Shown piece by piece: positions 18,165 through 48,764 of a DNA stretch of 64,000 nucleotides (position 1 is its first letter; every line of letters starts with the position of its first letter). This stretch comes from Escherichia coli. Lineage in GTDB: Bacteria > Pseudomonadota > Gammaproteobacteria > Enterobacterales > Enterobacteriaceae. The notes under the pieces were generated by a model. It worked only from the letters and a program-made list of their open reading frames with translations. It made no database searches and was not told the origin of the DNA. Location: NCBI RefSeq assembly GCF_044324785.1, contig NZ_CP172127.1; one strand, written 5' to 3'. Both the position numbers and the translations under genes were made by a program.

Positions 18165-18240
<76 letters not shown>

Positions 18241-18276
18241 TTGGGTGGTCTGTGCTTTGCAGCACTTTTCAAATTT

Positions 18277-18352
<76 letters not shown>

Positions 18353-18387
18353 TTGGGTGGTCTGTGCTTTTCAGCACTTTCAAATTT

Positions 18388-18463
<76 letters not shown>

Positions 18464-46645: not shown

Positions 46646-47221
46646 GTGCAACGTGAAGATGTACTGGGAGAAGCCCTGAAATTATTAGAATTACAAGGGA
46701 TTGCCAACACCACGCTGGAGATGGTTGCTGAACGTGTGGATTATCCACTGGACGAGCTACGCCGCTTCTGGCCAGACAAAGAGGCAATCCTCTACGATGC
46801 GCTGCGTTATCTTAGCCAACAGATAGATGTCTGGCGTCGTCAGCTGATGCTGGACGAAACGCAAACCGCCGAACAAAAGCTGCTGGCACGTTATCAGGCG
46901 TTATCGGAGTGCGTTAAAAACAACCGCTATCCGGGCTGTCTGTTTATCGCTGCCTGTACGTTTTATCCCGATCCTGGCCACCCTATTCATCAACTGGCCG
47001 ATCAGCAAAAAAGCGCGGCCTACGATTTCACCCACGAACTGTTAACCACACTGGAAGTTGACGATCCGGCGATGGTAGCAAAGCAGATGGAACTGGTGCT
47101 GGAAGGCTGTTTAAGCCGAATGCTGGTGAATCGTAGCCAGGCGGATGTCGACACCGCACATCGGCTGGCAGAAGATATCCTGCGCTTCGCCCGCTGCCGC
47201 CAGGGTGGCGCACTGACCTGA
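46646..47221 (+). CDS. yjdC: TetR-family regulator YjdC
   Basis: TetR-type HTH N-terminus; start inferred at a non-ATG codon ([30 protein letters not shown]). Confidence 0.75.
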
Positions 47222-47327
47222 CAGAAACACAGAAAAGAAGCGATTTGCCGCAATCTTAAGCAGTTGAATCGCTTTTACTGAAATTAGGTTGACGAGATGT
47301 GCATATTACGGTTTAATGCGCCCCGTT

Positions 47328-47403
47328 GCCCGGATAGCTCAGTCGGTAGAGCAGGGGATTGAAAATCCCCGTGTCCTTGGTTCGATTCCGAGTCCGGGCA
47401 CCA
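47328..47403 (+). tRNA. pheU: tRNA-Phe (GAA)
   Basis: gcccggatagctcagtcggtagagcaggggattgaaaatccccgtgtccttggttcgattccgagtccgggcacca, 76 nt with GAA anticodon; promoter-like ttgacg/tttaat upstream. Confidence 0.92.
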
Positions 47404-47579
47404 CTTTCACTTCCAGATTCATCTCCCGAACTCCACGAAACTCAAGTATAATCACATCGTTACAAGCAATCTGAACATCCTGAACTCCACCGAACTCTAC
47501 TGAACTCTCTCTCAATCAAGCGTTCATTGGGGGCACCGGTGGGGGCTCATTGTGTTCAGTCAGTTTCAGGAGCCCCCAT

Positions 47580-48764
47580 ATGGCACTTACAGCCAGACAG
47601 GTCGAAACAGCCAGACCTAAAGAAAAAGACTATAAACTCTCTGACGAACGTGGTTTATATCTGCTGGTAAAAACCACGGGTGCCCGCTACTGGCGGCTTA
47701 AATACCGGATAGCAGGAAAAGAGAAAAAACTGGCCCTCGGCGTCTATCCCGACGTCTCCCTTGCTGAAGCCAGAATCAAACGCGACGATGCCCGAAAAAT
47801 TATCTCCGAAGGTGGCGACCCGGGCGAAAAGAAGCGAAAGGAAAAACTCACTCAGAAAATCTCTGCCACCAATACGTTCCATGCCCTTGCTACGGAATGG
47901 CATCAGCATAAATCTTTGTCATGGTCTGAAAGTTACGCCAGAAGCGTACTGGAGGCTCTGGATAAAGATATTTTCCCGTATCTGGGCAAACGAAGCGTTA
48001 CTGATATCCTCCCGCTGGAAATGCTGGAAATTCTGCGCCGCATAGAAAAACGTGGCTCGCTGGAAAAACTTCGTAAGGTGCGTCAATACTGTAATCAGAT
48101 TTTTCGTTATGCCATCGCCACCGGACGAGCCACTGTCAATCCGGCATCTGAACTGACCAGTACGCTGGCGGCGCCAAAAGCTGCACATTTCCCCCACCTG
48201 AGAGCAGATGAGCTCCCTGTTTTTCTCCGGAAGCTCGCTGAATATCATGGCAGTCCTGTTACCCGCATGGCGACAAATCTGCTGCTTCTGACAGGCCTCA
48301 GAACGATTGAACTACGGTCCGCTGAATGGTCAGAAATTGATTTTGATAATGCCCTGTGGACAATCCCTGAAAGCCGCATGAAAATGCGACGTAAACATGT
48401 CGTACCACTGTCACGACAGGCCACTGACATTCTGCTGCAGCTCAAAACTTTCTCCGGACAATACCGGCTGGTTTTCCCGGGACGTTGTGATATCAACAAG
48501 CCAATGAGCGAAGCCAGCATCAATATGGTGCTCAAACGTATCGGTTACGATGGCAGGGCAACCGGTCATGGTTTTCGTCACACCATGAGTACCATTCTGC
48601 ACGAACAGGGCTTTAATTCTGCCTGGATTGAAATGCAGTTAGCTCATGTGGATAAAAATTCCATCAGGGGTACCTATAATCATGCCCTGTATCTCGATGG
48701 TCGCCGTGAAATGATGCAATGGTACGCTGACTACATTGATTCACTTTCCATCCAGGAGAGTTAA
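47580..48764 (+). CDS. P4-type tyrosine integrase adjacent to tRNA-Phe
   Basis: Start MALTARQVETARPKEKDYKLSDERGLYLLV with SD caggag upstream; catalytic R...HxxR...Y residues (HGFRHT, RGTYNHALY); N-terminal arm-binding-type domain. Confidence 0.88.
   Translation: MALTARQVETARPKEKDYKLSDERGLYLLVKTTGARYWRLKYRIAGKEKKLALGVYPDVSLAEARIKRDDARKIISEGGDPGEKKRKEKLTQKISATNTFHALATEWHQHKSLSWSESYARSVLEALDKDIFPYLGKRSVTDILPLEMLEILRRIEKRGSLEKLRKVRQYCNQIFRYAIATGRATVNPASELTSTLAAPKAAHFPHLRADELPVFLRKLAEYHGSPVTRMATNLLLLTGLRTIELRSAEWSEIDFDNALWTIPESRMKMRRKHVVPLSRQATDILLQLKTFSGQYRLVFPGRCDINKPMSEASINMVLKRIGYDGRATGHGFRHTMSTILHEQGFNSAWIEMQLAHVDKNSIRGTYNHALYLDGRREMMQWYADYIDSLSIQES

Follow-up and report, generated by a model that had tools for sequence, protein, structure and literature searches.

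The region at 47404-47579 was found to be the spacer between the tRNA gene pheU and an integrase gene (int) of an Escherichia coli island of about 70 kb, the cargo of which includes the raf operon (raffinose utilisation) and the resistance genes floR, tet(A), sul2 and aph. The features of the spacer and its flanks are given below in positions of the window, i.e. the whole 64,000-nucleotide stretch of DNA that was analysed.

47328-47403, plus strand: tRNA-Phe (pheU), the integration target (ARAGORN; Rfam tRNA, 68 bits)
47385-47403, no strand assigned: attachment (att) core, the 19-bp sequence ATTCCGAGTCCGGGCACCA, with a copy at the far end of the island (attR)
47427-47446, plus strand: phased block 1, two 10-bp units (CGAACTCCAC, GAAACTCAAG), proposed RDF (recombination directionality factor, i.e. 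excisionase) sites
47447-47462, no strand assigned: A/T-rich TATAAT followed by ATCAC, IHF-like (AATCACATCGTTA, 8/9 consensus positions)
47472-47520, plus strand: phased block 2, five units (TGAACATCC, TGAACTCCAC, CGAACTCTAC, TGAACTCTCT, CTCAATCAAG), proposed RDF sites
47528-47546, plus strand: tandem pair TGGGGGC-n5-TGGGGGC in a 12-bp register, proposed P'1 and P'2
47540-47578, plus strand: potential RNA hairpin of P'2/P'3 with a 9-10 bp stem, ending 1 nt before the AUG
47554-47558, no strand assigned: GTTCA, invariant in the alignment of 20 relatives, between the direct and inverted arm-type copies
47572-47578, minus strand: inverted arm-type copy (GCCCCCA on the plus strand), proposed P'3, 1 nt from the int ATG
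47580-48764, plus strand: int, a P4/IntS-family tyrosine integrase of 394 aa (PGAP CDS WP_001218742.1)

The tRNA gene was identified as pheU from its context, with dsbD-dicD upstream and cadC downstream. A second copy of ATTCCGAGTCCGGGCACCA was found about 69 kb downstream in the same genome (L007:4033-4051), just before the displaced pheU terminator and cadC; that is, the island is integrated at the tRNA 3' end and a direct repeat of this end lies at the opposite island boundary. No further copy of the 19-bp core was present within the 64-kb window. The terminator (11-bp stem, L007:4061-4086) directly follows attR and is the native pheU terminator, and no terminator-like site was found in the spacer between pheU and int. 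In composition the island is a mosaic, in which IS elements, integrase pseudogenes and several integrase remnants were found. Among 5,426 complete E. coli genomes, about 530 carry the int-proximal spacer. A search of the available literature for the arm sites of pheU/pheV integrases returned no description of them.

The ATG of int at 47580 coincides with the start annotated by PGAP. The protein contains the Pfam domains Arm-DNA-bind_3 (8.7e-27), Phage_int_M and Phage_integrase, the catalytic residues R241, K268, H330, R333, H356 and Y366 are all conserved, and judged by these domains and residues the integrase looks intact. Its identity is 46% to IntS of KplE1 and 42-53% to the P4 integrase. 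Along its length the spacer could be aligned collinearly with the attP-int region of phage P4 and the argW-intS region of prophage KplE1.

Two types of repeats were found in the spacer. The first consists of TGGGGGC, with direct copies at 47528 and 47540, the former missed in the original prediction, and an inverted copy next to the int start. The tandem pair was invariant in 20 relatives, and a matching tandem pair (TGGGGGCCTCATTGGTGGC) is located in the distal arm at L007:3955-3973, ending 59 bp before the attR core. When about 128 kb was scanned for TGGKGGC-n5-TGGKGGC, the pattern occurred at attL and attR only, and the distal-arm pair is also kept in the attR arms of other strains. The layout expected of arm-type sites is thus present in all its parts, i.e. 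a 12-bp tandem pair followed by an inverted copy where int starts, and on the distal arm a further tandem pair, and from the sequence the TGGGGGC set is best read as the arm-type sites for the N-terminal (Arm-DNA-bind_3) domain of the integrase. At the place equivalent to the invariant GTTCA, TTCGA was found in P4 and in the HPI/pks integrase leaders.

The second type comprises the GAACTC-like copies on the plus strand: CGAACTC at 47427, GAAACTC at 47437, TGAACAT at 47472, TGAACTC at 47481, CGAACTC at 47491 and TGAACTC at 47501. At least five copies of (c/t)GAACT(C/A) had been predicted; the cluster is real, but only four copies are exact and the other two have one mismatch. A Poisson estimate gave about 9e-6 clusters of four exact GAACTC within 81 nt per 64 kb window, and more than two GAACTC per 90 nt were found in 0/200 mononucleotide shuffles. 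Over the whole window YGAACTC was not enriched (17 observed versus 15 expected), so that only the local cluster is significant. A repeat search grouped the copies as a 20-nt family with 10-bp spacing, and the copies proved to be strictly phased, in 2 + 5 units at 9-10-bp spacing. The original prediction had missed this phasing as well as the fifth unit of block 2 (CTCAATCAAG at 47511-47520) and the minus-strand GAAC copies, among them GTTCA at 47554-47558. Among the 20 relatives the conserved core of the unit was AAnTCnA and not GAACTC, and the GAAC letters varied even between close variants.

RDF operators are direct repeats about one helical turn apart, at which binding is cooperative and bends the DNA (PMC7498355), and footprints of the P4 protein Vis have been obtained on attP DNA (PMC2603039). 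By analogy of position and architecture with the sites of TorI in KplE1 and of Vis in P4, the phased AAnTCnA units are most likely RDF binding sites. This analogy is weakened by the fact that TorI is a lambda-Xis-like winged-helix protein of a different family from AlpA/Vis, and the conserved AA..TC.A core could also reflect intrinsic curvature or a host factor. An attempt to link the phased units of P4 to Vis through GTCCG near its late promoters was abandoned, as the 29 occurrences of GTCCG in P4 make the motif too common. An AlpA-family protein of 78 aa (WP_000958154.1; PF05930, 2e-10) is encoded at L006:34975-35211, within the island and outside the window. It may not be the cognate partner of this integrase, because the island is a mosaic of about 70 kb with several integrase remnants.

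Between the two phased blocks, TATAAT or TAAAAT followed by ATCA is conserved at the same position throughout the family, P4 and KplE1 included. The IHF consensus was matched at 8/9 positions at 47450 and 47514, and positional clustering across the family was weak (4 loci per bin versus 0.27 expected). An IHF site has been reported in P4 Pint and in PintI of PAI I536 (PMC7286903). The assignment of 47447-47462 as an IHF-like element is suggestive only, the alternative being a -10 hexamer that lacks a -35. We also considered TATAAT at 47447-47452 as a promoter of int itself, and set this aside with some uncertainty since it has no -35 and is conserved in P4 and KplE1, whose promoter lies elsewhere. 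A consensus scan of 47200-47700 gave no sigma-70-like promoter, a weak negative given that the same scan also misses the mapped KplE1 promoter. The hexamers of the P4-type promoter are not conserved in the window, where CAATCA/CACCGG stand at the positions homologous to TTGAAA/CATAAT.

The same architecture was found across the family of related integrases. At the nine tRNA targets represented, the spacer between tRNA and int is typically 160-177 nt, but some loci have a longer one, for example a tRNA-SeC subgroup at about 295 nt. A motif/motif/inverted-motif layout was present in 61 of 74 family loci as compared to 5% of shuffles, and in 47 of the 61 loci with this layout the inverted copy was located 0-4 nt from the start codon. 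Autocorrelation was maximal at period 10 in 54/73 family loci (5.7 expected). The sequences filling this frame depend on the lineage, both for the arm motif (GGGGGC, GTATAG, ACGGTA, GATGGTA or GGGTAAA) and for the phased units (CTCnAC, GTCTCYT, GTCCG, CGATTG or CGTATCA), and loci with an integrase identity as low as 43% still keep the architecture. Identity of the N-terminal part of the integrase tracked the class of arm motif when C-terminal identity was controlled for (+0.105; reached in 0/1000 permutations). A natural exchange was found in two Proteus tRNA-Ser loci, the integrases of which are 98% identical over aa 100-380 and 50% identical over aa 1-88; here the arm motif had switched and the phased units were unchanged. 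The tRNA-Ser elements of P. mirabilis ATCC 29906 and P. cibi are an example of a pair with a switched motif. The arm motif and the N-terminal domain are physically contiguous DNA, and linkage contributes to their joint switching. The arm sites and the N-terminal domain may form a contiguous specificity cassette of about 330 bp that elements can exchange without a change of catalytic domain, tRNA target or RDF operators.

Based on sequence and on analogy with P4 attP and KplE1 attL, we conclude with a probability of roughly 70% that 47404-47579 is the int-proximal (P') arm of the attachment site (attL) of the island, carrying TGGGGGC arm sites for the integrase and phased sites for an RDF. The order of modules from the tRNA core would be two phased units, the A/T-rich IHF-like element, five phased units, the tandem TGGGGGC pair and the inverted TGGGGGC, and the spacer repeats would constitute the standard protein-binding att arm of a P4-type island, functional but ordinary. 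With its N-terminal domain at TGGGGGC on both arms, the integrase would form an intasome that bridges the arms and the core, as suggested by the matching tandem pair of the distal arm. By analogy, cooperative binding of an RDF to the phased units, along a single face of the helix, would introduce a bend into the arm and steer the reaction towards excision. Because every one of these sites is in the interval from the tRNA to the int ATG, integrase and RDF bound there would be expected to hold down int expression, i.e. to exert negative autoregulation, although the promoter-occlusion form known from KplE1 is not simply transferable because no sigma-70-like promoter was found in the spacer. This lineage has not kept promoter hexamers of the P4/KplE1 type, and its pheU terminator now lies beyond attR; most transcription of int would therefore probably be read-through of pheU, and on such transcripts the P'2/P'3 inverted repeat could also fold into a hairpin that occludes the SD.

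The original prediction had proposed the GAACTC repeats as candidate integrase arm-type sites or accessory-protein sites. The reasons for the former choice are that these are clustered direct repeats in an att arm and that arm-type sites of the lambda kind are short repeats too. However, another class of repeat fills this role in both characterised relatives, P4 and KplE1; the distal arm, inspected by eye, has no phased AAnTCnA cluster and only one match (AATTCGA), while heterobivalent integrases need distal sites; in the Proteus exchange the N-terminal arm-binding domain is replaced and the phased units stay identical; and strict 10-bp phasing in two blocks is the signature of an RDF. We regard the arm-type role of the GAACTC copies as quite improbable, and it is the accessory-protein option that agrees with their TorI-like position, phasing and division into two blocks. 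The prediction was right that the spacer holds recombination-protein sites of a P4-like element, and when the repeats were sought in islands with close homologues of this integrase they were present, but the roles given to the two types of repeat were largely swapped. Instead, the phased units might serve for curvature or for a host factor (phased AA tracts, IHF or Fis), bending the arm so that arm-bound integrase reaches the core. Conservation of the units is indeed highest at AA, TC and A, set in a 10-bp frame; elements resembling WATCAA lie at 47450 and 47514; and in both PAI I536 and P4 the region of the int promoter is bound by IHF (PMC7286903). This explanation is nevertheless unlikely: lineage-specific unit sequences fit diverging element-encoded proteins better than a universal host factor, and the equivalent units of KplE1 have been shown to be TorI sites. 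It is hardly credible that the repeats arose by chance as low-complexity sequence, or that they have decayed and no longer function. Such a reading would suit an old mosaic island with IS elements and integrase pseudogenes and the drift of the GAAC letters among close variants, but the cluster statistics speak against chance, the architecture is conserved down to the integrase identity given above, and nothing is missing from the two att arms, the core repeat or the catalytic residues of the integrase.

The inverted repeat at the int start can also be read at the level of RNA. It had been predicted to flank the SD and to be a possible translation-control hairpin. The repeat is real and one base longer than predicted, TGGGGGCTC at 47540-47548 being complementary at 9/9 positions to GAGCCCCCA at 47570-47578 with 21 nt between the arms, but the SD (AGGAG, 47568-47572) overlaps the 3' arm instead of being flanked. 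The segment 47536-47582 was predicted to fold at -20.9 kcal/mol (z = -3.89), with 0/200 shuffles folding as well, and the hairpin pairs three bases of the SD (G35-A36-G37). If the repeat acted chiefly on RNA, the TGGGGGCUC/GAGCCCCCA hairpin on pheU read-through transcripts would sequester the SD and attenuate translation or transcription of int. Such a function would fit a hairpin that is stable, non-random and paired to SD bases, the lack of a terminator between tRNA and int with the native pheU terminator beyond attR, and the non-conserved P4-type promoter hexamers. It would also fit ICEKp1, in which the tRNA-Asn promoter drives int, hardly any promoter activity resides in the 5' flank and deletion of SL3 increases expression by 194% (PMC13023037), and the CFT073 HPI int leader, which folds into three stem-loops, the third being the equivalent inverted repeat. 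On the other hand, two arms suffice for a hairpin, yet the motif occurs three times here and as a tandem pair about 69 kb away, and the first direct copy is conserved as well as the second. In KplE1 the mapped transcription start is downstream of the direct copies, making the hairpin impossible on that mRNA, and the equivalent hairpin is weak both in KplE1 (-6.3 kcal/mol, z = -1.2) and in the HPI (z = -0.7). The alignment of 20 relatives contained no covariation supporting the hairpin beyond invariant G-C pairs, and the equivalence of the ICEKp1 SL3 to the arm repeat is presumptive. RNA control as the sole or primary function is thus improbable, and the hairpin cannot be the primary reason for the repeat because a tandem pair of the motif is present in the distal arm too and because the motif switches together with the arm-binding domain of the integrase. 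What stands of the predicted hairpin is its stability, its occlusion of the SD and its analogue in ICEKp1, and it could act as a second layer over the DNA sites, a role that we consider possible but doubtful. Within the leader only the arm-repeat stem was conserved in the 20 relatives. A long-range fold of the 197-nt leader, in which GAAC pairs with downstream GTTC (-49.5 kcal/mol, z = -2.24), was rejected as RNAalifold on the relatives kept none of it. Matches to Rfam 15 covariance models were confined to the tRNA, with nothing in 47404-47579 at E ≤ 1.

Extended to the P4/IntS family as a whole, the arm sites at the start codon would double as an SD-hiding hairpin on read-through transcripts and serve both as intasome scaffold and as a translational or transcriptional attenuator dependent on the state of integration, which we put forward tentatively. 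If this dual use is true, the ICEKp1 'SL3' attenuator (2026) is an integrase arm-site pair, and the comparison suggests that the published RNA stem-loop and DNA arm-site readings of such leaders describe one and the same sequence. For a widespread family of pheU/pheV islands, the whole att architecture is now annotated, i.e. the core and the two arms with their arm-type sites and candidate RDF operators. From the family comparison, rules of practical use can be drawn for where to expect arm-type sites and RDF operators beside any Arm-DNA-bind_3 integrase. Given the presence of both arms, the core repeat and the conserved integrase catalytic residues, the island may still be excisable as a unit.

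Among known systems, the attP/int region of P4 (Pierson & Kahn 1987 and Cali 2004/Piazzolla 2006, as cited in PMC2951348, PMC2603039 and PMC7286903) is closely similar. The annotated 12-bp 'attP arm sequence repeat' of P4 (NC_001609), TTGGGGGCATAA/TTGGGGGCATCT, aligns with the pair in the window and both have the core motif TGGGGGC. As in the island, these repeats are arranged as two tandem copies, one inverted copy at the int start (3915-3926 in P4) and two tandem copies on the other arm. Between its core and its arm sites P4, too, has phased units that contain TC and an A/T-rich element with ATCA, and its RDF belongs to the AlpA family. The distances agree as well: from the core to the start of the tandem pair on the int-proximal arm there are 124 bp in the island, 112 bp in P4 and 116 bp in KplE1, and from the end of the pair to the core on the distal arm 59, 53 and 58 bp, respectively. 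P4 differs in its target, tRNA-Leu, in having phased units of the (G/A)TCCG type where the window has AAnTCnAC, and in a good promoter, TTGAAA-18-CATAAT, that overlaps its first arm repeat at the place of CAATCA/CACCGG in the window; the SD and the hairpin are both stronger in the window.

In KplE1 (CPS-53) five TorI sites (GTTCG/GTCCG/GATCG) are grouped in the blocks I1;2 and I3;4;5, the arm-type P' sites of IntS follow the TorI sites and overlap the -10, and intS is repressed by both IntS and TorI (Panis et al. 2010, PMC2951348). From the KplE1 sequence the P' sites are two direct GGGTAAA and two inverted TTTACCC copies, up to the ATG. The 161-nt spacer has the same order of modules, i.e. 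core, RDF block of two, A/T-rich element, RDF block of three in 10-bp phase, direct pair and inverted copies to the ATG (PMC2951348; PMC3509656). Block 1 of the window is equivalent in position to I1;2 and block 2 to I3;4;5, which is 10-bp phased and ends at the -35; a TTTACCC copy abuts the ATG at the position of P'3, and the Pfam architecture of the integrase is the same. In contrast, the KplE1 arm motif is GGGTAAA, its RDF is TorI and not AlpA-like, the TorI motif GTTCG is on the int-sense strand where the window has CGAAC with GTTCG-like sequence opposite, and a mapped sigma-70 promoter is located inside the KplE1 arm while none is recognisable in the window.

ICEKp1 and the HPI (Liu et al. 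2026, PMC13023037) share with the window a co-oriented tRNA and int separated by a spacer of about 161-176 nt, a tRNA terminator that has been moved to the opposite end of the element, leaving no terminator between tRNA and int, and predicted leader stem-loops, of which the window has a stable one. The CFT073 HPI leader also has the motif/motif/inverted-motif layout, with TGG(T/G)GTCA, whereas PMC13023037 treats the leader of ICEKp1 as RNA stem-loops only, with no mention of arm-type sites. For intI of PAI I536 (Chitto et al. 2020, PMC7286903), a P4-like integrase beside a tRNA represses its own synthesis and has an upstream IHF site; its target is selC, no delineation of its arm-type sites was found there, and IHF in the window is a guess at the level of the consensus only. 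The att site of lambda differs in that the Xis sites are on the P arm, int is not adjacent to the arm it regulates and the sequences are unrelated, but the heterobivalent logic of an integrase with core-type and arm-type sites is the same, and the RDF operators of lambda, of phage 186 Apl and of others are likewise direct repeats one helical turn apart that are bound cooperatively and bent (PMC7498355).

The integrase gene after tRNA-Phe stands at the head of a mosaic island of ~70 kb that carries a raffinose operon, a type I restriction-modification system, floR/tet(A)/sul2/aph genes and a cbtA/cbeA module, and the 1,473 bp queried from tRNA-Phe to int were 100% identical to the E. coli ECCNB12-2 chromosome. 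The tRNA gene was identified as pheU from dsbD and dicD upstream and cadC after the island, and the catalytic residues of the integrase are conserved. At the far end of the island, in the same genome beyond the window (L007), a 19-bp copy of the tRNA 3' end was found at L007:4033-4051 with the displaced pheU terminator immediately after it. 47404-47579 is thus exactly the spacer between att core and int; it is a real and functional int-proximal att arm of a P4/IntS-family element, which is of a well-known kind.

Features of the locus and spacer
47328-47403, tRNA-Phe (pheU)
47427, plus strand, CGAACTC
47437, plus strand, GAAACTC
47472, plus strand, TGAACAT
47481, plus strand, TGAACTC
47491, plus strand, CGAACTC
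47501, plus strand, TGAACTC
47511-20, fifth phased unit, CTCAATCAAG
47528, direct TGGGGGC, 12 bp upstream of the 47540 copy
47540-48 and 47570-78, inverted repeat, TGGGGGCTC and GAGCCCCCA, perfect over 9 bp
47580-48764, int, 394-aa tyrosine integrase with Arm-DNA-bind_3, Phage_int_M and Phage_integrase domains

The raffinose operon lies directly after int (window 48914 onward) and the floR/tet(A)/aph(6)-Id/aph(3'')-Ib/sul2 cluster further along the island (L006, record 4493000-4542999), all of this cargo being enclosed by apparently intact att arms. In L007 4100-4410, past attR and between the pheU terminator and cadC, an int-proximal arm in decay (…CTACCGAACTCAACCAGATTCTC…) is accompanied by an integrase fragment with a frameshift; an earlier pheU island seems to have left them behind.

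The original prediction of a cluster of GAACTC-type repeats between tRNA-Phe and int, and of an inverted repeat near the integrase SD, was borne out in the sequence, and the second direct TGGGGGC and the in-register fifth unit at 47511-20 had been overlooked. A repeat search placed the GAACTC-type copies in one family with a spacing of 10 bp; four exact GAACTC within 81 nt have an expectation of about 1e-5 per window, and no such cluster occurred in 200 shuffles. The 3' arm of the inverted repeat overlaps the SD AGGAG and stops one base short of the ATG. Elsewhere in the window, the T-arms of three tandem tRNA-Gly(GCC) genes (glyVXY, 18165-18463, minus strand) supply three of the 17 YGAACTC matches, and an exact 10-nt direct repeat, ACAGCCAGAC, at 47589-47598 and 47607-47616 (int codons 4-13) codes for a repeated peptide T-A-R(Q/P) and is probably just a coding repeat.

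Among 5,426 complete E. coli genomes, about 530 contained the spacer; both pheU and pheV are occupied, and identity is 73-100%. Both TGGGGGC copies, as well as GCCCCCA and GTGTTCA, were invariant in a comparison of five E. coli variants, in which the GAAC letters varied (GAGCTC, GAATTC, AGACTC, GACTC). When the phased units of 20 relatives were stacked the logo was nnAAnTCnAn, strongest at T6 and C7; the conserved core is thus AAnTCnA(C) and not GAACTC. The GTTCA at 47554-47558, which lies after the direct arm-type copies and before the inverted one, was invariant in these 20 relatives, and its position is occupied by TTCGA in P4 and in the HPI and pks leaders.

Scanning one genome per species gave 80 loci with integrases 80-43% identical, and their spacers were compared right-justified on the start codon. 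The spacer is usually 160-177 nt, whether after tRNA-Phe, Asn, Arg, Thr, SeC, Ser, Gly, Leu or Ala, and longer ones are outliers, chiefly a tRNA-SeC subgroup near 295 nt. The common layout is core, ~20 nt, two phased units, TATAAT/TAAAAT plus ATCA, ~20 nt, 3-5 phased units, an arm motif (X), 5 nt, X, ~20 nt, inverted X and ATG; the second phased block ends in AATCAAG, with TTGACA in distant members. X is lineage-specific, and all copies in a locus change in concert (TGGGGGC/GCCCCCA, TGTATAG/CTATACA, ACGGTAT/ATACCGT, GATGGTA/TACCATC or GGGTAAA/TTTACCC). A formal search found X-X-inverted-X in 61/74 loci, against 5% when spacers were shuffled; most of the 61 keep a spacing of exactly 12 bp between the direct copies, and in 47 the gap between the detected inverted copy and the start codon is 0-4 nt. 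Upstream of X, autocorrelation was maximal at period 10 in 54/73 loci (5.7 expected), with a mean of 0.394 against 0.271 in shuffles.

In the ~295-nt tRNA-SeC loci (L026-L032, L038, L042, L084) the start codon is separated from the GGGGGT-type motif set by ~130 nt more than usual. These loci also have an additional GGGGGTAT copy and a leader, AGCCGGAGGATGTCATG, that is conserved, which suggests that DNA was inserted or that the leader is organised differently. In E. coli DG341-1 (L002, NZ_CM144243.1, 2440-2678) a homologue of the integrase, with a spacer of 78% identity, lies directly after ynjA; tRNA-Phe is absent beside it, the junction ...GGAGGGTACTACC loosely resembles the tRNA 3' end, and a secondary attachment site is the probable explanation.

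Heterobivalent integrases require arm-type sites on both arms. The distal arm of the window strain carries a tandem pair, TGGGGGCCTCATTGGTGGC, at L007:3955-3973; across about 128 kb of the genome the pattern was found nowhere beyond the two arms, and other strains keep the distal arm, with identities as low as 77%. No phased AAnTCnA cluster was seen there on inspection by eye.

Distances between tandem pair and core
Distal arm, pair end to core: window strain 59 bp, P4 53 bp, KplE1 58 bp
Int-proximal arm, core to pair start: window strain 124 bp, P4 112 bp, KplE1 116 bp

At equal C-terminal identity, the N-terminal domains were more alike between loci of the same X class (mean identity 0.63 versus 0.50 for different classes in the 0.55-0.65 C-terminal bin), and the X-class regression term of +0.105 was reached by none of 1000 label permutations. 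The clearest case is a natural module swap at two tRNA-Ser loci, of Proteus mirabilis and P. cibi (L048 and L060), over the 180 nt upstream of int and int codons 1-100. The integrases are 98% identical at residues 100-380 and only 50% at residues 1-88; the GTCTCYT phased units are common to both, and X has changed from GGGG(T/G)AC to TTGTATAG. X changed with the N-terminal domain and therefore travels with the arm-binding domain, of which the phased units are independent. Linkage contributes to this co-switch, X and the N-terminal coding region being contiguous DNA. The sequence comparisons argue strongly that the TGGGGGC set are integrase arm-type sites.

The inverted repeat had been proposed as a translation-control hairpin. 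Pairing of the direct copy at 47540 with the inverted copy at 47572-78 is predicted to be strong (-20.9 kcal/mol, z = -3.89), and in transcripts starting upstream of 47540 it would mask the SD, so that an RNA role is plausible as a second layer. However, this reading leaves the third X copy and the distal pair unexplained, the hairpin is without covariation support, and its equivalent is weak in KplE1 and HPI; the repeat is best explained as part of the integrase arm-type set. A scan detected no sigma-70-like site in the spacer, although the same scan misses the mapped KplE1 promoter, and no terminator was found in the spacer after the tRNA. Read-through from pheU combined with a hairpin layer may thus be envisaged.

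This setting resembles ICEKp1, where, according to the 2026 study (PMC13023037), the promoter activity of the 161-nt 5' flank is negligible and expression is held down by three predicted stem-loops, deletion of SL3 giving +194%; the study makes no mention of arm sites. The CFT073 HPI and pks-island int leaders (L095 2999-3159 and 47826-47986) are both 161 nt, with X-X-inverted-X of the type TGG(T/G)GTCA. SL3 is probably the arm-site pair, because the third of three predicted stem-loops in the HPI leader consists of the second X and the inverted copy.

The phased units carry the general signature of operators for recombination directionality factors (RDFs), which are direct repeats one helical turn apart, cooperatively bound (PMC7498355). 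Of the earlier proposal that they bind integrase or accessory proteins, the accessory part fits them better than the arm-type part; they are best explained as putative RDF operators, and the spacer may also contain an IHF element. The island encodes a 78-aa AlpA-family protein, which, the island being mosaic, is a candidate RDF only; P4 Vis, of the same family, gives a footprint on attP DNA (PMC2603039).

KplE1 and phage P4 are the two relatives that have been characterised. In KplE1 (CPS-53), whose IntS is 46% identical to the window integrase and whose argW-intS spacer is 161 nt, five TorI (excisionase) sites, GTTCG/GTCCG/GATCG, form blocks I1;2 and I3;4;5, the latter ending at the -35; the arm-type P' sites of IntS have a common TAAA motif, there is overlap between P'1 and the -10, the transcript begins 28-29 nt ahead of the ATG, and intS is repressed by both IntS and TorI (Panis et al., PMC2951348). 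The TorI sites are the 10-bp-phased units of KplE1, and its P' sites (GGGTAAA and GGATAAA, followed by two TTTACCC copies that reach the ATG) have the X-X-inverted-X layout of the window family. In the P4 GenBank record, 12-bp 'attP arm sequence repeats' are annotated: one tandem pair precedes int, an inverted copy stands at the int start, and a second tandem pair lies on the other arm; TTGGGGGCATAA/TTGGGGGCATCT ... TGCCCCCAA share the TGGGGGC core of the window. In P4 the promoter (TTGAAA-18-CATAAT) and the first arm repeat overlap; the positions homologous to the promoter hexamers read CAATCA and CACCGG in the window. In a seven-way alignment the features of the window, P4 and KplE1 were superimposed.
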